From a phage: a stretch of 44,793 nt of DNA. A program made the translations under genes and the position numbers. Under the pieces are notes generated by a model that was not told the DNA's origin, searched no databases, and was given only the letters and a program-made list of their open reading frames with translations. Each line of letters begins with the position of its first letter. The stretch's first letter is position 1. Below, piece by piece: positions 16,064 through 27,535 of this stretch. The stretch lies in the sequence record PZ445535.1. One strand, written 5' to 3'.

Positions 16064-16671
16064 CCACTTTTAAATTATACGGCGTCTTAGGACGCCGTTT
16101 TGGTAAAGAGCATAAGCTGGACTGCTTCACGCCGGGCGAGGGTATCACCGGCCTATGTGTGAAGTTACCCGGCTTACAGGAATTTTTAATGTCTGCGCAC
16201 CTGGATAATATGATGTTCAAAGTGCGCAAGGGTAATCACACGATGAGCGGGACCGACGAGCTAGGCGAAGCCCACGGCAACCGCGTCATTACCATCGCGC
16301 CAGTAATGACCGGTGCGAAAAGCGGATTAGGCCAATTGCTGGCGGGCGTGGCTATTGTAGTGGCCTCGTTCTATACGGGCGGGCTTGCTGCTGCCGCTTT
16401 CGGTGCTTCCGCCGCTACCGCCGCCGCGATCGGGACTGCGACATTCTCGTTCGGGATGTCTATGGCGCTGGGCGGCGTTATGCAGCTACTGTCACCGCAG
16501 CCGAAAGGATTGCAGACCCGCCAGGACGTGGATAACAAGGCATCGTATGCGTTCGGAGGGCCGGTAAACACGACTGCGCAGGGGACAGCACTTGGTGTAT
16601 TATGGGGCGAGCGTGAGATCGGCGGCGCTATTATTTCTGCCGGTATCGTAACTGAGGATTTACACGAATGA
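16054..16671 (+). CDS. tail assembly protein I-like
   Basis: 206 aa from ATG 16054 (RBS GGAG 11 nt upstream); Gly/Ala-rich hydrophobic C-terminal half; overlaps K stop and J start. Confidence 0.55.
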   Translation: MAMTTFKLYGVLGRRFGKEHKLDCFTPGEGITGLCVKLPGLQEFLMSAHLDNMMFKVRKGNHTMSGTDELGEAHGNRVITIAPVMTGAKSGLGQLLAGVAIVVASFYTGGLAAAAFGASAATAAAIGTATFSFGMSMALGGVMQLLSPQPKGLQTRQDVDNKASYAFGGPVNTTAQGTALGVLWGEREIGGAIISAGIVTEDLHE

Positions 16672-19600
16672 CTATCGTCTACTCCGTAACGGGCCATAAG
16701 GGTGGAGGCGGGAAACAGCACACCCCGCAGGAGACGCCTGATAGCCTGCACTCGCTGGCTAAAATCCGCATTCTGCTCGCACTGGGTGAAGGGGAATTTG
16801 AAGGCATCCCTTCGACAGCCGAGCTACGCAAGCGCGTCTACCTGGACGGCACGCCGATCATGAACGAGGATAACTCGGAAAACTTCCCTGGCGCACGCGT
16901 TGAATTTCGCCCCGGAACACAGCACCAGGATGTGATTCACGGATTTTCAGCCGTGGAAAGCGAGTCATCCGTAAACGTCAAACTGGAACAGGGGACGCCG
17001 TGGGTCCGTCAAATCACCGACACCAGTCTTGACGCGGTGCGCATTCGCATCGGTATTCCTGCGTTGTACACCAACGAGGAAAACGGCGATCTGGTGGGTG
17101 GGCGCATCGACTATAAAATCGTGGTGTACACCGACAACGCTGATCCGCGGGAGTTTAACTTCGCTGCCGTTGGTAAAACAATGTCGCTGTATGAGCGCGA
17201 CCACCGCATTGAATTACCGCCGAACGTTAACACTAGCTGGCGCGTCGAAGTGCACCGCATTACGCCCGACTCCACCTCGGCGAAAGTGGTAAACGATATT
17301 CGCGTGCAGTCAATCACTGAGATTGTCGACGCCCGTTTGCGCTACCCGCTAACTGCGTTGCTATTCGTCGAGTTCGACGCGAAGGCTTTCCAGAATATCC
17401 CGCGCGTGTCTATCAAGTGCAAAGGCCGCAAAGTGCTGGTCCCTAACAACTACGACCCGATCGCGCATACCTATAGCGGCGACTGGGATGGTACCTTCAA
17501 GCGTGCATGGACGGATAACCCGGCGTGGCACTGGTACGATATTTGTATTACGGAACGTTTCGGACTCGGTCGTCGCATCAAGCCGCAAATGCTAAACCGC
17601 TATGCGCTTTACCAGATCGCCCAGCGCTGCGATCAGAAGGTTAGCGACGGCAACGGCGGACAGGAAATCCGGTTTAAGAACGACATGTACATCCAGTCGC
17701 AGACCGACGCATGGACCGTACTGAAAGACTTAGCCGCCATCTTCGCCGGTATGACCTGGTGGGGCAACCAAATGCTGAATATTGTCAGTGACCAGCCGGT
17801 CGCTGCGGTTTCGCACACCATTACTAATGCCTCCGTTATAGATGGGCGATTCGATTATGCGTCTGGCAGCCAGAAGACCCGCTATTCAACCTTTGCGGTG
17901 GCATACGGCAATCCGGCTAACCATTACGACGACGCAATCGCTACGGGCCAGCGTGTGGAACTGGTGCGCCGCCACAAGATTAACCGCCTTGATATTACGG
18001 CGATCGGCTGTACGCGTGAATCAGAAGCGCAACGCCGCGGGCACTGGGCGCTCATCTCAAACCAGCTTGATCAGCAGGTGAGCTTCAAAGTCGGCATGGA
18101 AGGTCTGTTCTTCATCCCCGGAAGCGTGGTAGCTATCGCAGACACCAATATTTCTGGCGGTTTCGAAATCCGCGGCGGGCGCTTACTGGAAGACCCCGGA
18201 ACGCGCACGGTGCTTAACACCGACGAGGAAATTACATTCCGACCAGGTGATAAATTCCTGGTACGCACTGCGAACGGTAGTGTCGAGACTCGCACAATCT
18301 CAAGCGTAAACGGCAACAAGGTTACGCTATCAAGCGCACTTGACGCGGACCCGATCCCGTTCCAGCCGTTTTGCGTTGACGGTGATGATATTCAGGTGCA
18401 GAAGTTCCGCATCACCGATCTGGAGTATGACGACGCGACCAGCACCTTCTCGGTGCGCGGGATTGAGTACAACGACAGCAAGTATGATGCCGTTGATAAT
18501 GGCGCTCGTCTTGACCCGGGCATCTTTACGCAAATGCCGGACGGCGTGCTGAAGGGGCCGGAATCCGTGACCATTACCCCGTCGCAGATTTCAAGCCAGG
18601 GCCAGTTAATCACCAACGTGGATATTGTTTTCCCGCCGGTGAAAGATGCCGTTGTCTATGAAATCCAGTGGCGAAGGACCAGCCTTCAGAATATGGCGGT
18701 GCAGTGGGGTAACGACTGGGTAAACCTGCCTCGCACGCCGTCAAACGGTGCGCACATCCCTAACGTGTTTTCCGGTAACTACCAGGCGCGCGTCCGGGCA
18801 ATCGGTATGGGTGAAATCTCATCCCCGTGGGTGGAATCTGTCATCACGCCGATTGAAGGTCGTCTCGGCGGTCTGAATGCGCCAATCATTACGGCAGCAG
18901 TGTCCGGTCTGCATCAGATCTTGTGGAAGTGGAATCACAACAACGCCGCTACGGATATTTCATACACGGAATTGCAGGTACGCAAGCCGGGTACTGAAGA
19001 ATGGCACTTCCTCACCAACGTGCCGTATCCGGGCGCGGACTATGCGCAGACGTCGCTTGAGTTCGGGGTCTATCAGCAGTTGCGCGCACGCGTGTCTGAT
19101 AAAATCGGCAACCTGTCAGACTGGTCAGCGCCGTTTGAAGGCCAGGTGAGCGATAAAGTCGACGACTACATGAAGGGACTCGACGACGAGTTTTTGACTT
19201 CGGAAGACGGTAAGCACTTCCAGGAGCAGATCGACACGTTCCCGCAAGGCATCTATGAGTCAATGCTCACTGACGCGCAGCAGTTGTTTAACGCCCGCGC
19301 CGAGTACAAAGGGATTTACGCCGAGATCAAGGTGGCTTATAACGTCGCTGCCGACGCACACCAGGCCGTCGCGCAACTGGAAACACTGGTAGGCACTCGT
19401 ATTGACGACGCGGAAGCGGCGATCCACACGCTACAGACTGCACAGAGCACGCACGAACAGGCGTTTGCCCAGTACCAGCAAACTGTGTCAGCGAAGTTTG
19501 GCGAGCAGGAATCGGCGATTCAGCAGGTTCAGACGGCAACGAGTGACGTAGCCAGCGCACTGGCGACCTATAAAACACAGGTAGCCGCGCAGTTCGGGCA

Positions 19601-20114
19601 GCAGTCAGCCGCGATCGAGCAGAAGATGACGTCCACGTTTAACCACTCCGGCGGTAGCGCAACGTACAGCCTGAAAGCTGGCGTGACGTACAACGGGACG
19701 TATTATGATGCGGGTATGCAGCTTTCGGTTGTTGCATCAGGCAACGCGGTTAAATCCCGCATCGCGTTCAAAGCGGACCAGTTCTACATTATGCACCCGT
19801 CGAACGGCACGCTATCCTCGGCGTTCATCGTAGATGGCGGGCAGGTGTACATCGACACGGCACGAATCAAGAATGCGTCCATTAACTTTGCGCAGATCAC
19901 GGACACATTACAGTCCAATAACTTCGCAGGAGGTAGCCGCGGGTGGCGAATCCTGAAGAACGGGCAGGCCGAGTTTAACGAGGTAACAGTCCGCGGCAAC
20001 CTGTTCGCTACCACCGGTAACTTCGGATTCTCGGGCGGGACCGTGACAATCGACAAGACGGGTGTTAACGTGCCGCTACCAGGCGGCGGGAGGGTGAAAG
20101 TCGGAACGTGGTAA
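16668..20114 (+). CDS. central tail fiber / host specificity protein J-like
   Basis: 1148 aa; N-terminus GHKGGGGKQHTPQETPDSL...EGEFEG...VYLDGTPI matches the lambda J pattern; intrinsic terminator downstream. Confidence 0.85.
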   Translation: MTIVYSVTGHKGGGGKQHTPQETPDSLHSLAKIRILLALGEGEFEGIPSTAELRKRVYLDGTPIMNEDNSENFPGARVEFRPGTQHQDVIHGFSAVESESSVNVKLEQGTPWVRQITDTSLDAVRIRIGIPALYTNEENGDLVGGRIDYKIVVYTDNADPREFNFAAVGKTMSLYERDHRIELPPNVNTSWRVEVHRITPDSTSAKVVNDIRVQSITEIVDARLRYPLTALLFVEFDAKAFQNIPRVSIKCKGRKVLVPNNYDPIAHTYSGDWDGTFKRAWTDNPAWHWYDICITERFGLGRRIKPQMLNRYALYQIAQRCDQKVSDGNGGQEIRFKNDMYIQSQTDAWTVLKDLAAIFAGMTWWGNQMLNIVSDQPVAAVSHTITNASVIDGRFDYASGSQKTRYSTFAVAYGNPANHYDDAIATGQRVELVRRHKINRLDITAIGCTRESEAQRRGHWALISNQLDQQVSFKVGMEGLFFIPGSVVAIADTNISGGFEIRGGRLLEDPGTRTVLNTDEEITFRPGDKFLVRTANGSVETRTISSVNGNKVTLSSALDADPIPFQPFCVDGDDIQVQKFRITDLEYDDATSTFSVRGIEYNDSKYDAVDNGARLDPGIFTQMPDGVLKGPESVTITPSQISSQGQLITNVDIVFPPVKDAVVYEIQWRRTSLQNMAVQWGNDWVNLPRTPSNGAHIPNVFSGNYQARVRAIGMGEISSPWVESVITPIEGRLGGLNAPIITAAVSGLHQILWKWNHNNAATDISYTELQVRKPGTEEWHFLTNVPYPGADYAQTSLEFGVYQQLRARVSDKIGNLSDWSAPFEGQVSDKVDDYMKGLDDEFLTSEDGKHFQEQIDTFPQGIYESMLTDAQQLFNARAEYKGIYAEIKVAYNVAADAHQAVAQLETLVGTRIDDAEAAIHTLQTAQSTHEQAFAQYQQTVSAKFGEQESAIQQVQTATSDVASALATYKTQVAAQFGQQSAAIEQKMTSTFNHSGGSATYSLKAGVTYNGTYYDAGMQLSVVASGNAVKSRIAFKADQFYIMHPSNGTLSSAFIVDGGQVYIDTARIKNASINFAQITDTLQSNNFAGGSRGWRILKNGQAEFNEVTVRGNLFATTGNFGFSGGTVTIDKTGVNVPLPGGGRVKVGTW

Positions 20115-20118
20115 ATGC

Positions 20119-20143
20119 GAAGGGGCCAAACGGCCCCTTTTTC
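20119..20143 (+). terminator. intrinsic terminator after J-like gene
   Basis: AAGGGGCC-AAAC-GGCCCCTT hairpin followed by TTTTT. Confidence 0.7.
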
Positions 20144-21107
20144 AATACATATTAGGAAGGACAATAAGCGGAGTAGGTACTGCTATGTTGCGGTTGGGTA
20201 TCAGGAATTGCCGCCGTGAGTAGTTACCGACGACGCGGCTTTTAGCGATACGCACTTTGTTACCCGCCATGCGTATACCGTTCATGCGTACGTGGTTGTA
20301 ACCGCCGTTATTCTCTATCAGCGTGCCGGTGTATGAAAGCTGGATCATACTGTTTCCAATATCCTGGTCCCCCGTGCCAATATTAATCACGCGATTAAAA
20401 ACGAATGGCTTCTTGACCGTGGAGAACGTGACCTGCCCCTGGTTGTTGGTCATCGTGATACCAGCCCCCGGCTGAGGCGGCGTATTGTTGAATATGGCGA
20501 GGTCTAAGTCAACGGCAGCCGCCACGTCGTCAATCCCGCCGTACGAGGCATTGCGGACAATGATATTGGTCCCGTCGAAGGCTACCGACACGTTGCCGTC
20601 GTCCCATCGCGCAAATGGGATGCCACCTACCGGTAATTTCATACTCCCGTTGACGCGAACGCGGCCCACATACTGGCAGGTCATCAGCTTTGCTACGTTA
20701 GATATGGCAGTGAAGTCGGTAGAGTTAGCTACCAGAAGCCCCGCATTGCGCGACCCCACCGGCAGCACTTCCATAATAGTCCCGGCCCATTGAGGCAGGC
20801 CGCTATACGCCCTGAACGCATCAGCGCCACGCAGCGTTACGCCGTTATTGCCGTTTCGCGACACAGACGTAACGTACATCGGATCAGGGATGACCAGAGT
20901 CTGGTCTAATACCTCCATCACTTCAACCGGTCGGGTAAGCACTACTACGACCTGCGATCCTGGCGTTAAGGGTGTATTGATTGTTAGCGTTTTGTCAGAC
21001 TGACAGCGCTGATTGAAGTTTGCACAAAAAGACGGGGCACGAAGCCCCGCGGTGATTTCCATTCTTGGCCTGCCATCGTTATATTCGATAAGAATGCCTG
21101 CACCCAT
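20142..21107 (-). CDS. putative receptor-binding / host-range protein
   Basis: 321 aa; Gly/Asn/Thr-rich, beta-type composition; RBS GGGAG 8 nt upstream; directly downstream of a lipoprotein gene on the same strand, inside the tail fiber region. Confidence 0.4.
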   Translation of the reverse strand: MGAGILIEYNDGRPRMEITAGLRAPSFCANFNQRCQSDKTLTINTPLTPGSQVVVVLTRPVEVMEVLDQTLVIPDPMYVTSVSRNGNNGVTLRGADAFRAYSGLPQWAGTIMEVLPVGSRNAGLLVANSTDFTAISNVAKLMTCQYVGRVRVNGSMKLPVGGIPFARWDDGNVSVAFDGTNIIVRNASYGGIDDVAAAVDLDLAIFNNTPPQPGAGITMTNNQGQVTFSTVKKPFVFNRVINIGTGDQDIGNSMIQLSYTGTLIENNGGYNHVRMNGIRMAGNKVRIAKSRVVGNYSRRQFLIPNRNIAVPTPLIVLPNMY

Positions 21108-21109
21108 AA

Positions 21110-21334
21110 TTACCACTCCCGTGATTTAACTGATACTGTACCTGAGAAGTTACCATCTGCATCGGCGGACAAGCCAGTGTAGCGCATGTCAATGTCTCCG
21201 GTCGCGACCTTTTGCCCATCTACATAACGCAACATGCAGCTTCCAGCGACGTAGGTTACGCAATCACCGTTATGGCGCTCAACCGCACAACCGGACAGCA
21301 TAGCAACGACTAAAATACTTAATAAAGTTTTCAT
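21110..21334 (-). CDS. lipoprotein, putative superinfection-exclusion (Llp/Cor-like)
   Basis: 74 aa; signal peptide MKTLLSILVVAMLSGC with lipobox; RBS AAGGAG 8 nt upstream; own promoter; next to putative RBP. Confidence 0.5.
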   Translation of the reverse strand: MKTLLSILVVAMLSGCAVERHNGDCVTYVAGSCMLRYVDGQKVATGDIDMRYTGLSADADGNFSGTVSVKSREW

Positions 21335-21363
21335 GGTATCATCTCCTTTGTTTTGACAACTTA

Positions 21364-21392
21364 AATATAGTGCAACCAATACGAGATTGCAA
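21364..21392 (-). promoter_or_regulatory. sigma70-like promoter for lipoprotein/RBP cassette (TTGCAA-N17-TATATT)
   Basis: Minus strand: attggTTGCAAtctcgtattggttgcacTATATT; tandem ATTGGTTGCA motifs. Confidence 0.45.
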
Positions 21393-21415
21393 CCAATTAA
21401 TAAGGAGTTTTCGCG

Positions 21416-23329
21416 ATGGCAGCGGGTATACTTAACGTAACAAACAATAGCAAGGCCGTAACGGGGTCGGGCACGACGTTTACGTCATTGAAAGCAGGCG
21501 ACTTTTTATCGCTGGTGGTGGGGCAAGTCCCATACACCGTAGCGATCGAATCAATCCAGAGTAACACGGCGCTTACGCTGGTGCTGCCGTTTGACGGTCC
21601 GACGTCTACCGGTCTGGCCTGGTCGTCGGTTGACCGCGATACTATGTCACTGGCTACTATGGGCGTAACCGTGCAGGCGCAGAAAGCGCTACGTCTTATG
21701 ATCGCGGACGAAAATAACTGGCGTGCAATCTTCGGTGACGCAGAGCAAATCAGCGTTACACTACCCAACGGCACCGTAATGCAAGGTATGTCGTGGGGCT
21801 ACTTGTCCAGTCTGCTTAATGACGTAGACCCCGTTGAAATGCGCAACCTGCAACAGCAGGCTGAGACTGCTAAAAACCAGGCGGTAACCGCGAAGGGGCA
21901 AGCAGAATCGGCACGCGATGCTGCTAACACCGCGAAGACTGGGGCGGAGAATGCCCGCAACCAGGCTAACAATGCTAAAACCGACGCGCAGACGGCAAAA
22001 AGGCAGGCCGAAGCCGCTCGCGATGCTGCTGTCACTGCGAAGACTGGGGCGGAGAATGCCCGCAACCAGGCGCAAGGCTACCGAGATGAGGCGGAAGGTT
22101 TTAAAAACCAGATTAACCCTGCACTATTCGTGCAGAAGTCGCAAAACCTTAATGACGTTGCCGATAAAGCAGAGGCGCGCGCTAACTTGCAAGTTTTCTT
22201 TGCATCAAACTCTAACCTGGGAACTACAGACCTCAATACGCTCGACAGCACGAAGGAAGGGCGTTATTACCAGACCACCTCGGTGAACGCGACACCCGAG
22301 CGTAACTACCCGTTTCAGGAAGCCGGTTGTCTTACCGTGTTTAAAACGGGAGGGGGTAGTGTGGAGGCTTGCATCCAGGAGTACACCACGTTTTCAAGCC
22401 TGCGTCGGTTCGTCCGTTCGCTCGCTGGGGCGGTATGGACGGCGTGGAAGGAGATCTACCTGCAAGGGTCGTCCCCGACATACGAAAATATCGACTCGAC
22501 AGGACGAGTTAGATCTGAAAAGGCATATCCAGCATTCGAGTGGGTGTCGACGAGAGTAGCCGACGATTTCATCGGTAAGCGAGTCAGCATTGAGAACGAC
22601 ACAGGCGTTAATATGAATATGTTCTTCATGCAGAAAGACACAACCGCAAACAGACGTGTCGTAGCGTTCGCAAGGCCAAACTCTACTGTTTTCCACTTCG
22701 TAGGGTATAACGGCGGGCTACCTACAGACGGCAACAGCGCCCCGTCGAATAACATTAACTTTAACACGCAACCGCAAGGATGGCGTATGGTGTCCGGCGG
22801 CTGGCAAAATGCACCGCTCGATGGGAACAACTACGGGACTTTATTCACGCAGTGTGTGCAAGGTGTGTCGCAGGGGGATTCGAAAGACAACGGTACATCT
22901 GGCTTGTGGTATTCACAGCGATATGTTAATACCGATTCTAGGGTGTTCATCCGAAATCAAACAAACAACGCAGCCTGGGGCAGGTGGTATGAATTTACTA
23001 AAACGGCAGTCTCGGATGAACGCCTGAAGAATGTAAAAGGGGATTTGAATGTTGAAGGTGCGCTCGATAACATCAACCGCATGGAATTTAAAATATTCTC
23101 GTTTAAGGATGAGAAGGCTGGGAAGGGGTATCGTCGCGGTGTTATCTCGCAGCAGATTCGCCAGATCGATAAAGAGTACACGAAGGAGATCGGCGGGTAC
23201 TATCACCTCGACCAGACACCAATGCTACTGGATGCCCTCGCGGCAATTAAGGCGTTGCGTGCGCGTGACGAGGCTAATAAAGCAGAGATTGCAGAACTGA
23301 AAGCAGCGATCGCTGAATTGAAGAAATAA
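21416..23329 (+). CDS. lateral tail fiber with C-terminal intramolecular chaperone (S74-like) domain
   Basis: 637 aa; Ala/Asn/Gln-rich coiled-coil repeats; C-terminal SDERLKN...coiled-coil tail typical of self-cleaving fiber chaperone domains; RBS AAGGAG; bidirectional terminator downstream. Confidence 0.75.
   Translation: MAAGILNVTNNSKAVTGSGTTFTSLKAGDFLSLVVGQVPYTVAIESIQSNTALTLVLPFDGPTSTGLAWSSVDRDTMSLATMGVTVQAQKALRLMIADENNWRAIFGDAEQISVTLPNGTVMQGMSWGYLSSLLNDVDPVEMRNLQQQAETAKNQAVTAKGQAESARDAANTAKTGAENARNQANNAKTDAQTAKRQAEAARDAAVTAKTGAENARNQAQGYRDEAEGFKNQINPALFVQKSQNLNDVADKAEARANLQVFFASNSNLGTTDLNTLDSTKEGRYYQTTSVNATPERNYPFQEAGCLTVFKTGGGSVEACIQEYTTFSSLRRFVRSLAGAVWTAWKEIYLQGSSPTYENIDSTGRVRSEKAYPAFEWVSTRVADDFIGKRVSIENDTGVNMNMFFMQKDTTANRRVVAFARPNSTVFHFVGYNGGLPTDGNSAPSNNINFNTQPQGWRMVSGGWQNAPLDGNNYGTLFTQCVQGVSQGDSKDNGTSGLWYSQRYVNTDSRVFIRNQTNNAAWGRWYEFTKTAVSDERLKNVKGDLNVEGALDNINRMEFKIFSFKDEKAGKGYRRGVISQQIRQIDKEYTKEIGGYYHLDQTPMLLDALAAIKALRARDEANKAEIAELKAAIAELKK
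21911..22071 (+). repeat. 105-bp in-frame tandem duplication inside tail fiber gene
   Basis: 56-nt blocks at 21911-21966 and 22016-22071 nearly identical (AGACTGGGGCGGAGAATGCCCGCAACCAGGC); encode repeated ARDAA-TAKTGAENARNQA. Confidence 0.7.
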
Positions 23330-24554: not shown

Positions 24555-24583
24555 AATATAATTGGTTGCATTATTGGTTGCAA
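24555..24583 (-). promoter_or_regulatory. sigma70-like promoter (TTGCAA-N17-TATATT) with 5' stem-loop
   Basis: Minus strand: cacTTGCAAccaataatgcaaccaatTATATT; GC stem-loop CGGGAGG...CCTCCCG at 24525-24546 at predicted 5' end. Confidence 0.45.
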
Positions 24584-25041
24584 GTGAATTTTGCAAGATT
24601 CACTGAATAAATGTGCGGGACCAGTTCTTCGCACGCCCGTTTGATGGCGGCTATGTTCTTCGCGCAGTCGTCAATGATGACCAGTTCGTTAACTTCTGCG
24701 TAGCACACCAGGCCAAATACGGAACGAGCTTTATATTCCGGCGGCGGGGTGTCATCCAGCATGTGGCGCAAGAACAGACGGCCTTTCGGGAATCGGTCTA
24801 ATTGCTCTTTCGTTGTCTCCCAGCATTCAGACTGGCGGTTTGACAGGTACGCGATGTCGAAGCCCTGTTTAGCGTACATGCGCAATAACGGCAGCATGTC
24901 ATAATTAATGTCTTCGCGGACGTGGGCCTTATGCCACTTCGCCCAAAACGTTGATTTAGTCTTGATCCCCGGAACTAGGTCGTCGCGCACACTGCTTGAC
25001 CCGTTGATAACGCCATCTAAATCGCAAATCAGTAGTTTCAT
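24571..25041 (-). CDS. HAD-superfamily phosphatase-like protein
   Basis: 156 aa; HAD motif I DLDGV at residues 7-11, then YLSNR and K...IIDD motifs. Confidence 0.55.
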   Translation of the reverse strand: MKLLICDLDGVINGSSSVRDDLVPGIKTKSTFWAKWHKAHVREDINYDMLPLLRMYAKQGFDIAYLSNRQSECWETTKEQLDRFPKGRLFLRHMLDDTPPPEYKARSVFGLVCYAEVNELVIIDDCAKNIAAIKRACEELVPHIYSVNLAKFTCNQ

Positions 25042-25259
25042 TTTAATTCCGCCATTAAATTTTCACGTACAATACGGGCCGAGAATGCGTCGCACACAAG
25101 ATGGCAACGCGCCGTCATGACAAGCCAGCCAGTTAGGTCAAGGCCCAGCAATTGATGTGGTTGGCTTGCGCGCCTTACTTTATTTCCAGGGAAAACCTGG
25201 TAGCGTTTAATTATTTCATCCACGACGCGAGGACTTCGGTCGACGACTAAGATATTCAT
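25038..25259 (-). CDS. hypothetical protein
   Basis: 73 aa; RBS AAGGTG 7 nt upstream; ATGA overlap with downstream gene. Confidence 0.4.
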   Translation of the reverse strand: MNILVVDRSPRVVDEIIKRYQVFPGNKVRRASQPHQLLGLDLTGWLVMTARCHLVCDAFSARIVRENLMAELK

Positions 25260-25725
25260 TTAATTCACCTTCGCTCATTATTTCGATTTGTGCGCTGCCG
25301 TTTGGCGGCACTTCTTCAAAGATTATCAATTGCTGGCATTTGTTGTTACTCGGCCCGACCTTACCGGTGACGGCGTGTATAAACCGGATCCGCCAGTCCA
25401 GCAAAATAATCAGGTTGGCTGTTTGCCTTGCCAGTTTGGCCCACTTCGTGGTCGTATCCTGGTTGAGCAACATTACCGTTCTACGCCCCTGCGATGCGCA
25501 AGTCACCCACGGCAGCGGGTCGGAATACGGCGGATTGCACCACTTCCACCCGGTTAACTCTGACCAGTCAGCATCAAGTGCGCTGTGCTCTTTCGTGAAG
25601 TAGCGCGGTAATAGATGGTTGTGGTCGCTCGCCGCCATGTCGTAGCGGAATTTAAACGCCTTGCGCAGTGGCTTAAATAAAGCGGGCGGCGTTCGCCAGC
25701 TATCCTTCTGCTCATTCTCCGTCAT
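25216..25725 (-). CDS. DNA N6-adenine methyltransferase (phage Dam-like)
   Basis: 169 aa from ATG 25725; N-terminal WRTPPALF and catalytic NPPY motifs; start overlaps upstream gene by 14 nt (translational coupling). Confidence 0.6.
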   Translation of the reverse strand: MTENEQKDSWRTPPALFKPLRKAFKFRYDMAASDHNHLLPRYFTKEHSALDADWSELTGWKWCNPPYSDPLPWVTCASQGRRTVMLLNQDTTTKWAKLARQTANLIILLDWRIRFIHAVTGKVGPSNNKCQQLIIFEEVPPNGSAQIEIMSEGELNEYLSRRPKSSRRG

Positions 25726-26176
25726 GCTGCGGGTCCAGTGCGTAAAGTGGGATCTGTTTGGCGCTTTCCCACAGGCGTTTAATTCTTTCCTGCTCGCCTT
25801 TACCCATCTGGCGCATGTCCGTACTATAGTTGCCGTTGGTGGTGTCACGCCACGCGATCAGCACAAGGTCTTTACGGTCGATCTTCGTTGTGCGGCCTTT
25901 CGGACGGACGTATTCTTCAGCACGTTTGCAATGCTCGCGCAGGGCATCGGCGGTTAGCCGGGTGAGCGATACGGATGTTGTGTACCCGGTGCGCTGCATA
26001 ATGGTGATCAGTTCGCCCAGCAGTTCGAAGCGTTCCGCCAGTTCCTTGCGGGCCTTCTCTTCGGCTTCATAGCTTGCCAGGTAGGTATTTGCCAACGCGG
26101 TAGCGCCGTCCGCTTTCTCGCGGGCTTCAAGACACTGTGCTACCCAGTACGCTTTTTCTTCTTGTAAAATTTTCAT
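25712..26176 (-). CDS. hypothetical protein
   Basis: 154 aa; RBS GGAG 8 nt upstream; TAATG overlap with upstream gene. Confidence 0.5.
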   Translation of the reverse strand: MKILQEEKAYWVAQCLEAREKADGATALANTYLASYEAEEKARKELAERFELLGELITIMQRTGYTTSVSLTRLTADALREHCKRAEEYVRPKGRTTKIDRKDLVLIAWRDTTNGNYSTDMRQMGKGEQERIKRLWESAKQIPLYALDPQHDGE

Positions 26177-26418
26177 TATTTAGTCTCCGTCATGCGAATC
26201 TCATTTTGTGGGATAAATTTGCCGTTCATCTCTACCCAGCAGGATCCGTGCCGCCACTGGGTGTTACGACCGGTTTGCTCCGCATACACAGTCACGCATT
26301 CGTACTTCTCGAAGTGATACGTGCAGGAGGAAGGCATAATGATGCAAAAAACCACTATTAGCACCATCCACACCCATAACCGCAAATCACCGTCGTAATC
26401 TAAAAAGAATCGTTTCAT
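26176..26418 (-). CDS. small membrane protein
   Basis: 80 aa; hydrophobic segment WVWMVLIVVFCIIM; RBS GAGGA 7 nt upstream; first gene after promoter at 26465-26493. Confidence 0.45.
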   Translation of the reverse strand: MKRFFLDYDGDLRLWVWMVLIVVFCIIMPSSCTYHFEKYECVTVYAEQTGRNTQWRHGSCWVEMNGKFIPQNEIRMTETK

Positions 26419-26435
26419 CGTCAAATCCTCATATT

Positions 26436-26462
26436 AAAAAGGGCGTTCCCTTCGGAACACCC
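26436..26462 (-). terminator. intrinsic terminator overlapping transcription start of next promoter
   Basis: On minus strand GGGTGTTCC-GAAG-GGAACGCCC hairpin followed by TTTTT; lies between promoter -10 (26465-26470) and RBS of gene at 26418. Confidence 0.4.
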
Positions 26463-26464
26463 TC

Positions 26465-26493
26465 AATATAATGCAACCAATCTCGCAATGCAA
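26465..26493 (-). promoter_or_regulatory. sigma70-like promoter (TTGCAT-N17-TATATT)
   Basis: Minus strand: attggTTGCATtgcgagattggttgcatTATATT; tandem motif copies. Confidence 0.45.
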
Positions 26494-26498
26494 CCAAT

Positions 26499-26822
26499 TT
26501 ATGCAAAGAAATTTGGATCGCTCATCACATCCACAAGATAAAGGTTGTTAAGGCGGTTGCCGTAGTGGCCTGGCGTGCGCTGACGGCACACAACAGCGTA
26601 GCCCGGTGGGATGGTATTTCCGGTTGCCAGAATCCACGCCACGCGCGCGCCGTTTAGTGATTTACCGTTGTATTCGATGCGAGTGCCACCATCGGCAGTG
26701 TTAAGGCTGCCAATCTTCTTACCAGTGGAATTGAGGCGGATAACGCCGGTCTGGCTATCGTAATTAAACAGTTGTTTGGTCAGTGCTACCGAAAAATCAA
26801 TTGGTTCAAAGATAGTGTTCAT
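26499..26822 (-). CDS. HNH_3-like domain protein (possibly degenerate)
   Basis: 107 aa; FNYDSQTGVIR...GKSLNGARVAWILATG...GY pattern resembles HNH/AP2-type N-terminal domains but the usual His residues are not evident; RBS GAGGA. Confidence 0.35.
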   Translation of the reverse strand: MNTIFEPIDFSVALTKQLFNYDSQTGVIRLNSTGKKIGSLNTADGGTRIEYNGKSLNGARVAWILATGNTIPPGYAVVCRQRTPGHYGNRLNNLYLVDVMSDPNFFA

Positions 26823-27535
26823 TTTAAATTTTCCTCATTGACTGCAATCGCGAAGCCGCGCGGTGTGAGCGACCTGATTAATTTAGTGCGGGCGGACTTG
26901 CCGCCGAGCAGACTATACTGCTTGGAGTACCCTTTTTCAACGAAAACAGGTCTCTTCTCCGGCATCCTGAAGCCGTTTCCAGTCCATAAGCAAGTCAGCT
27001 TCGGGTAGGAATCACGCGCGTTGATGTATTCCGGGAATAATGGGTGCACATCGTCTTCCGGCAGGTAGCCTCCATACTCCCACGGGTTAAATGAGTGGTC
27101 TGGCTTACGCCACTGGGTGGATAGCACACTGCGCGGATTCTCTATCATGTACGGCACCTCGAAGAAGTCACCGAGAAATGCCGCAATCTTCGCTGTGCGC
27201 ACTGCCTTAAGCTGAAAGGCCGGATCTTTCGCACGCTTGCGAGGGAAGGCAGGCGCACCGCTAACCGCAAGGTCCGTACACGGCGGAAAGGCGTAAATAA
27301 TATCGGGCGTGCCAAACCCACCCGCCATAGCGCGGTCAACGAAGTCCAGATCGATAAACACGTTCTTATAGCGAATGCCGCGCCCGTAAAGCCGGTAGTG
27401 ATTGTAGGAGCCGTGGTCGGCCCCGTCGAAGTTAAAGCAGGTGCACTTATGCCCCATCTCGGCAGCACGCTCGATCATAAGGCCGCTGCCGTCGAATAAT
27501 GACCAGATGTTTAGTATCCTAACTCGCTTATTCAC
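26819..27535 (-). CDS. compact DNA (cytosine-5)-methyltransferase-like protein
   Basis: 238 aa; motif I-like LFDGSG, PC motif AFPPCTDLAVSG, ENV-like MIENPRSV; GTG start overlapping helicase stop with RBS GAGG 6 nt upstream. Confidence 0.55.
   Translation of the reverse strand: MNKRVRILNIWSLFDGSGLMIERAAEMGHKCTCFNFDGADHGSYNHYRLYGRGIRYKNVFIDLDFVDRAMAGGFGTPDIIYAFPPCTDLAVSGAPAFPRKRAKDPAFQLKAVRTAKIAAFLGDFFEVPYMIENPRSVLSTQWRKPDHSFNPWEYGGYLPEDDVHPLFPEYINARDSYPKLTCLWTGNGFRMPEKRPVFVEKGYSKQYSLLGGKSARTKLIRSLTPRGFAIAVNEENLK

Follow-up and report, generated by a model that had tools for sequence, protein, structure and literature searches.

A DUF6453 receptor-binding protein and a PF24052 lipoprotein encoded beside the J gene of a Dhillonvirus-type siphophage, most likely directed at LptDE

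A two-gene minus-strand cassette lies between the J-like gene and the lateral fibre gene

The stretch of phage DNA analysed here (record PZ445535.1, 44,793 nucleotides, hereafter the window) is a Dhillonvirus-type siphophage genome. Megablast with its first 25 kb found 159 phage records, nearly all of them E. coli or Shigella phages, and the top matches were phage Ioannina and Dhillonvirus LM40P1 at about 89% identity, with just 81% in the region described below. Two adjacent minus-strand open reading frames with 2 nt between them are flanked by a plus-strand J-like gene and a plus-strand lateral fibre gene. A previous sequence-only reading had placed a lipoprotein gene and a gene for a 321-aa protein on the opposite strand between two plus-strand fibre genes, and both frames were found where it had put them. 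Its naming of the two neighbours also agrees with the Pfam matches, which are Phage_Tail_Tip and FNIII-A_GpJ on one side and the Peptidase_S74 chaperone domain on the other. The features of the locus are as follows.

16668..20114, plus strand: J-like central tail fibre or tail tip protein, 1148 aa (Pfam FNIII-A_GpJ, Phage-tail_3 and Phage_Tail_Tip; PHROG 31, 'central tail fiber J')
20119..20140, no strand assigned: GC-rich hairpin, GGGGCC-loop-GGCCCC (from folding; stem kept in 7/7 relatives)
20142..21107, minus strand: receptor-binding protein (RBP), 321 aa, DUF6453, orthologue of the Oekolampad RBP bas18_0025 (from homology; predicted LptDE binder)
21110..21334, minus strand: superinfection-exclusion lipoprotein of the Rtp45 / SE-Oeko family, 74-aa precursor (assigned from PF24052 and homology)
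21343..21346, minus strand: Shine-Dalgarno GGAG, 8 nt 5' of the lipoprotein ATG (from sequence inspection; GGAG or GGGG in relatives)
21364..21392, minus strand: putative sigma-70-like promoter, TTGCAA-17 nt-TATATT (from a consensus scan; 9/12 matches)
21416..23329, plus strand: lateral tail fibre, 637 aa, divergent from the cassette (Pfam Peptidase_S74 at residues 533-587, an intramolecular chaperone; PHROG 1980, tail fiber)

At the nucleotide level the locus is present in 38 phage records, the RBP matches 115 protein clusters and the lipoprotein matches 329 phage records. Because of these matches and the Pfam E-values of 7e-123 for the 321-aa protein and 3e-21 for the lipoprotein, neither frame can be taken for a chance one. 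Further along the window, some of the minus-strand ORFs at 24571-27535 are placed like the Dam-like N6-adenine methyltransferase and Dcm-like C5-cytosine methyltransferase annotated in the syntenic part of phage Oekolampad, and others match the positions of its putative phosphatase and putative homing endonuclease, all of which is ordinary for Dhillonviruses.

The position of the cassette has been described in related phages. In Drexlerviridae, Dhillonvirus, Nonagvirus and Seuratvirus, 'bona fide RBP loci' come immediately after gpJ, their allelic variants match the terminal receptor without exception, and spontaneous resistance to Oekolampad was mapped to lptD (Maffei et al. 2021, PMC8594841). 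A 2026 preprint (10.64898/2026.04.02.716166) confirms that the RBPs of this locus include four unrelated families, specific for FhuA, BtuB, LptD and YncD and each defined by >30% identity and >99% coverage, and reports that the C-terminal domains of J are receptor-specific. For further Dhillonviruses carrying the same allele as Oekolampad, LptD was predicted as the receptor in the BASEL completion paper.

The 321-aa protein is an orthologue of the Oekolampad receptor-binding protein

The RBP frame opens in the ORF listing at a GTG (324 aa), 9 nt earlier than the ATG at 21107 that gives 321 aa. We took the ATG as the start because MGAGILI opens all homologues and the PDB sequence, and because a GGGAG Shine-Dalgarno precedes it closely. 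The description of this protein as Gly/Asn-rich holds modestly, with 10.0% Gly and 9.3% Asn compared to 7.9% and 4.4% in the long ORFs of the window. It is a full-length member of Pfam DUF6453 (PF20051; E 7e-123, 410 bits against a cut-off of 25), and NCBIfam yielded no informative result. In the PDB one sequence was matched, chain C of 9RPT (also in 9RPW and 9RQI), over residues 1-321 with an E-value of 2e-181; the chain represents the RBP of phage Oekolampad (Bas18). The alignment with bas18_0025 (RBP-Oeko) is gap-free and 83% identical over 321/321 residues, which supports the proposed role of the 321-aa protein as tip adhesin. The comparison with the folds of known receptor-binding proteins that had been suggested as a check led to the same place, since the fold agrees with the solved structure of RBP-Oeko. 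The LptD-type family is delimited by >30% identity and >99% coverage to a validated member (10.64898/2026.04.02.716166) together with a PF20051 match above the gathering score, and in sequence the window protein falls within these bounds.

RBP-Oeko has been purified and solved on Shigella LptDE by cryo-EM (Dunbar et al., PNAS 2025, PMC12685063). It sits deep in the lumen of the open-state translocon, where the interface measures about 1,700 A2 and is formed mostly by the loops EL3-5 and EL11, and both binding and infection are abolished by LptD Y671N and D352Y. The one contact residue that the paper names in its text is Gln299 of RBP-Oeko, which in the open state forms a hydrogen bond to LptD Ser350 in loop EL4. 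Our comparison at the LptD interface covered Gln299, which is Arg in the window protein (Q299R; codon 20213-20215, minus strand). This is one of 53 substitutions that are spread across the whole protein and are slightly denser in residues 281-320, and the fine specificity of the window protein may therefore differ from that of RBP-Oeko.

These differences bear on the alternative that the window RBP recognises another LptD variant, enterobacterial host or set of loops, or escapes the common lptD resistance alleles D352Y and Y671N, and that the lipoprotein has diverged with it. The 17% divergence from RBP-Oeko, with the change at the named contact and the denser substitutions near the C-terminus, is in its favour, as are the DUF6453 members that we found in Citrobacter, Salmonella, Klebsiella and Trabulsiella genomes and the divergent loop tips of Rtp44 of phage Rtp and RBP-Oeko reported in PMC12685063. 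Against it, Rtp44 and RBP-Oeko are only 33% identical and yet the receptor of phages with RBPs of this family was mapped to E. coli LptD, and the genomes nearest to the window all belong to E. coli or Shigella phages. We therefore regard an altered specificity as unlikely; if true, it would be a natural second data point on how phages track an essential, constrained receptor.

Among 38 family members, the most conserved blocks of the RBP are the N-terminal 30 residues and residues 121-135, and the most variable are residues 31-45, 61-75 and 91-105. The conserved N-terminus would fit docking to J, which is supported by the poorly ordered tail-proximal part of the RBP described in PMC12685063.

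The 74-aa product is a PF24052 lipoprotein related to SE-Oeko and Rtp45

The lipoprotein precursor begins with MKTLLSILVVAMLSGC followed by AVER, and by inspection residues 1-15 form a signal peptide with Lys2 in the n-region and a hydrophobic core of 10 residues, ending in the lipobox L-S-G-C with Cys16 as the lipidated residue. The mature part is 59 aa (6.4 kDa). The residue at +2 is Ala, so the Asp signal for inner-membrane retention is absent and an outer-membrane lipoprotein is expected. The earlier description of a 74-aa lipoprotein with an LSGC lipobox was thus borne out by Cys16, Ala at +2 and membership of PF24052 (Phage_lipoprotein; E 2.7e-21, 75.7 bits against a cut-off of 27). The signal peptide and lipobox check proposed with it found Sec/SPII features, again by inspection, and a conserved internal pair of cysteines. 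In this pair, Cys25 and Cys33 align with the disulfide Cys30-Cys38 of Rtp45 (PDB 9rps_D, E 1.7e-6).

The identity to Oekolampad bas18_0026 (SE-Oeko) is 77%, and this, with the match to Rtp45 (9RPS), supports the suggestion that the lipoprotein is a superinfection-exclusion factor blocking the phage's own receptor. In PMC12685063, Rtp45 was solved on the periplasmic side of LptDE, where its hairpin shifts EL4 outward by up to 20 A and sterically blocks the RBP, and the authors contrast this steric displacement of EL4 with the long-range allostery of T5 Llp on FhuA. The authors were unable to express SE-Oeko, so the exclusion mechanism is known only for Rtp45, which is about 35% identical to SE-Oeko. 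Judged from these relationships, the window lipoprotein would most likely attach to LptDE from the periplasm and put a stop to both RBP binding and infection.

The J tip is of the LptD type and the module has recognisable boundaries

The first 900 aa of the J-like protein are about 93% identical to both the J protein of Oekolampad (LptD type) and that of Envy (FhuA type). Over its last 75 aa the identity is 92% to Oekolampad J and 54% to Envy J, so the J tip matches the type of the adjoining RBP gene. The window RBP gene hence adjoins the 3' end of a gpJ homologue with a matching tip, as a member of the LptD-type family is expected to do. At the same locus, the genes of Envy are unrelated, with two ORFs (100 and 224 aa) on the J strand and cor on the opposite strand, and no match to DUF6453 or PF24052 was found for the ORFs of the Envy locus.

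The boundaries of the exchangeable module were examined by comparing positions 21287-21415 (minus strand) of the window with the corresponding segments of Oekolampad (L001:7385-7520) and Envy (L015:2480-2610). The DNA of Oekolampad and Envy is 90-97% identical from the 5' end of the lateral fibre gene through the promoter, the 5'UTR and the signal peptide to the lipobox cysteine, and their signal peptides are identical (MKTLIMICAVLLSGCA). Past the lipobox, identity drops to about 33-50% in the mature lipoprotein. This break places the right-hand boundary of the module at the lipobox; on the left, the module ends within the final ~75-150 codons of J. From these alignments, the DNA coding for the signal peptide seems to act as a common recombination flank.

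Transcription and translation signals of the cassette

The sequence-only reading had given the lipoprotein its own promoter. A match, TTGCAA-17-TATATT, is present at 21392..21364 (minus strand); it is a consensus match only, from a scan that as a whole was not enriched over shuffled sequence (3 found, 1.9 expected). Its -35 hexamer TTGCAA is invariant in 7/7 aligned relatives, including a divergent one that is 65% identical over the cassette, and in the -10 region the window differs from the other relatives. The lipoprotein and RBP genes meet at TAA-tt-ATG, a GGGAG is contained in the last part of the lipoprotein gene, and this junction is conserved in all relatives, which suggests translational coupling of the two genes.

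J and the RBP gene converge with 27 nt between their stop codons, and this gap contains the hairpin at 20119..20140. On the plus strand it has a dG of -16.9 kcal/mol (z = -4.1) and is followed by TTTTT; on the minus strand the dG is -15.7. The stem is kept in 7/7 aligned relatives and the loop is variable. A consensus terminator scan missed this hairpin, and its strength and conservation were revealed by direct folding; we consider it a probable bidirectional intrinsic terminator.

A second terminator-like hairpin, GCGGGGC-TTCGT-GCCCCGT followed by CTTTTTG, lies at 21050..21032 (minus strand), 57 nt inside the RBP ORF, with a dG of -14.7. As a conserved attenuator of the RBP relative to the lipoprotein it was rejected, for it occurs in the window and its nearest relative only and is absent from six others, which have a Tyr codon instead of Phe and a weaker stem. 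With about 2.4 such sites expected by chance in the stretch, it is probably a chance occurrence.

Both families occur in other phages and prophages

The two proteins share their Pfam families and their tandem arrangement beside J with phage Rtp (Drexlerviridae; Rtp44 and Rtp45, 9RPS), and Rtp45 and the window lipoprotein both have a lipobox, the internal disulfide pair and a VP.GE.D.RY-type motif. Rtp is nevertheless distant and belongs to another phage family, as the low identities of its two proteins to those of Oekolampad given above illustrate. The tandem of a lipoprotein gene followed by a DUF6453 gene, convergent with J, was also found in Tunavirus phi2457T and the lambdoid phage mEp515.

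A different layout is seen in Citrobacter prophages and an integrase-bearing contig, where the DUF6453 gene is on the same strand as J with a 2-nt gap and lies upstream of a PF25670 fibre gene (prophage-type loci L010:2750-8199, L011 and L012:2801-8360 were compared). Since these prophage genes come directly 3' of J on the same strand and before the fibre gene, they lie within the tail operon. Within 6 kb of the prophage DUF6453 genes, a search detected neither a PF24052-like lipoprotein nor any ORF with a lipobox.

Public annotation of the RBP trails the literature: it appears as DUF6453 in Pfam and as a hypothetical or membrane protein in GenBank, and PHROG 1265 carries the label 'membrane protein; moron, auxiliary metabolic gene and host takeover'. 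Taken at face value, this label and the position of the gene on the strand opposite the tail operon would make the 321-aa protein a non-structural moron product and leave receptor binding to the C-terminus of J alone. The window protein has no hydrophobic segment in a Kyte-Doolittle scan (maximum 19-residue score 1.13), for which reason we rejected the term 'membrane protein'; moreover, its orthologue is a soluble LptDE-binding protein in a cryo-EM structure, and the prophage copies are inside the tail operon directly after J. We therefore hold this explanation to be very improbable and retain the assignment of the 321-aa protein as the receptor-binding protein.

PF24052 lipoproteins are further encoded by the ~76-kb Gordonclarkvirinae podophages Bas91 (LorandFenyves), Bas92, NJ01, EcoN5, IME267 and MN03. 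Bas91_0098 (PQ850614 63023-63304; L013:3965-4246, plus strand) is a 93-aa protein with the lipobox LTGC and a PF24052 E-value of 2.4e-36; it is 46% identical to the window lipoprotein over 50 residues, has the motif RPDGWCA..GVCV..VPSGEIDMRY and is encoded among small, mostly unannotated ORFs away from the tail genes. The terminal receptor of these podophages is modelled as the LPS core in the BASEL paper, and our literature search found no paper tying them to LptD. Their lipoprotein might serve to keep out rival siphophages that depend on LptD, or its presence might point to a use of LptD that has so far gone unrecognised.

Relation to Oekolampad, the T5 pair and Cor lipoproteins

The closest characterised system is that of Oekolampad (Bas18, Dhillonvirus; PDB 9RPT/9RPW/9RQI), which shares with the window the genus-level genome type, the locus, the gene order and strands, the fold and the J tip. 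The RBP has 321 aa in both phages and the lipoprotein 74 aa compared to 73 in Oekolampad. The two pairs are separated by 53 amino acid differences in the RBP and 17 in the lipoprotein, and the -10 region, the 5'UTR and the signal-peptide sequence also differ.

The sequence-only reading had likened the cassette to the llp-oad organisation of T5, and this comparison stands in part. The adjacency of the two genes and the functional analogy hold: in T5, as proposed for the window, a monomeric RBP (pb5) at the tip of the central fibre is encoded next to a small outer-membrane lipoprotein, and Llp attaches to the receptor from the periplasm and keeps the RBP from binding, a logic for which the window lipoprotein would be the counterpart. 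Homology and gene orientation do not hold. No sequence similarity was found between pb5 or Llp and the window proteins, neither T5 protein has a Pfam family, and pb5 was absent from both fold searches. In T5, oad (minus strand) and llp (plus strand) are divergent with two annotated promoters between them, whereas the window genes are in tandem on the same strand and 2 nt apart. T5 pb5 is a protein of 640 aa whose receptor is FhuA, whereas the window RBP has 321 aa and its receptor is most likely LptDE. The mode of blocking differs as well, being allosteric for T5 Llp and steric loop displacement for Rtp45.

Cor lipoproteins (phi80/N15/T1 type; Envy gp20) are encoded at the corresponding position in Dhillonviruses with an FhuA-type RBP locus, where they diverge from the lateral fibre gene and have the same promoter region. 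The Envy Cor signal peptide is identical to that of SE-Oeko up to the lipobox and the mature domains are unrelated; alignment with Envy Cor is limited to the signal peptide, and Envy Cor falls outside PF24052. The FhuA allele has its RBP genes (100 + 224 aa) on the same strand as J and cor alone is opposite, whereas in the window both genes are opposite J. A reading of the cassette as truly homologous to the T5 oad/llp pair or to a Cor-type system, with FhuA as its target, is largely refuted already and scarcely credible, despite the T5-like logic of an adjacent RBP and lipoprotein and the existence of FhuA-dependent Dhillonviruses.

Proposed function of the cassette and its meaning

Taken together, the cassette is very probably the terminal-receptor module of a Dhillonvirus-type siphophage in its LptD-specific allele, consisting of an LptDE-binding RBP and a receptor-blocking lipoprotein. 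This assignment is directly supported by the gene structure, family membership, identity to solved proteins, fold, synteny and the matching type of the J tip. As far as can be judged from sequence, the receptor is most likely LptDE and not FhuA.

Homology with the characterised relatives is our basis for LptDE binding, the exclusion mechanism, the virion location and the timing of expression; the steps of transcription, translational coupling and termination are read from the sequence. The module would probably work as follows. Both genes would probably be transcribed by host RNA polymerase from the one sigma-70 promoter at 21392..21364, with the lipoprotein and RBP probably coupled in translation through TAA-tt-ATG, and transcription would end at the hairpin shared with J. 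The monomeric, all-beta DUF6453 RBP would dock onto the C-terminal tip of J, probably via its first ~30 residues, which are conserved, and its distal part would enter the extracellular lumen of the LPS translocon LptDE, leading to irreversible adsorption. After export, the 74-aa product would receive its lipid at Cys16 and be delivered to the inner leaflet of the outer membrane. On the periplasmic side of LptDE it would push EL4 outward and so prevent RBP binding, by which infected cells would be protected from superinfection and progeny would not be wasted on debris.

For phages of the same genus, published work already covers this type of system and its locus, together with the protein families, the receptor and the structural mechanisms. 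The window contributes a diverged orthologous pair only, one more natural variant of RBP and blocker, and opens no new question. For annotation, the lesson is that DUF6453, PHROG 1265 and the corresponding 'hypothetical protein' entries in GenBank should be read as LptD-type receptor-binding proteins, and PF24052 as the LptD-blocking exclusion lipoprotein. The pair confirms that one can tell from the locus beside gpJ which receptor a small siphophage uses. LptDE is an essential and conserved outer-membrane machine and a drug target, and its phage binders are relevant to phage steering and inhibitor design.
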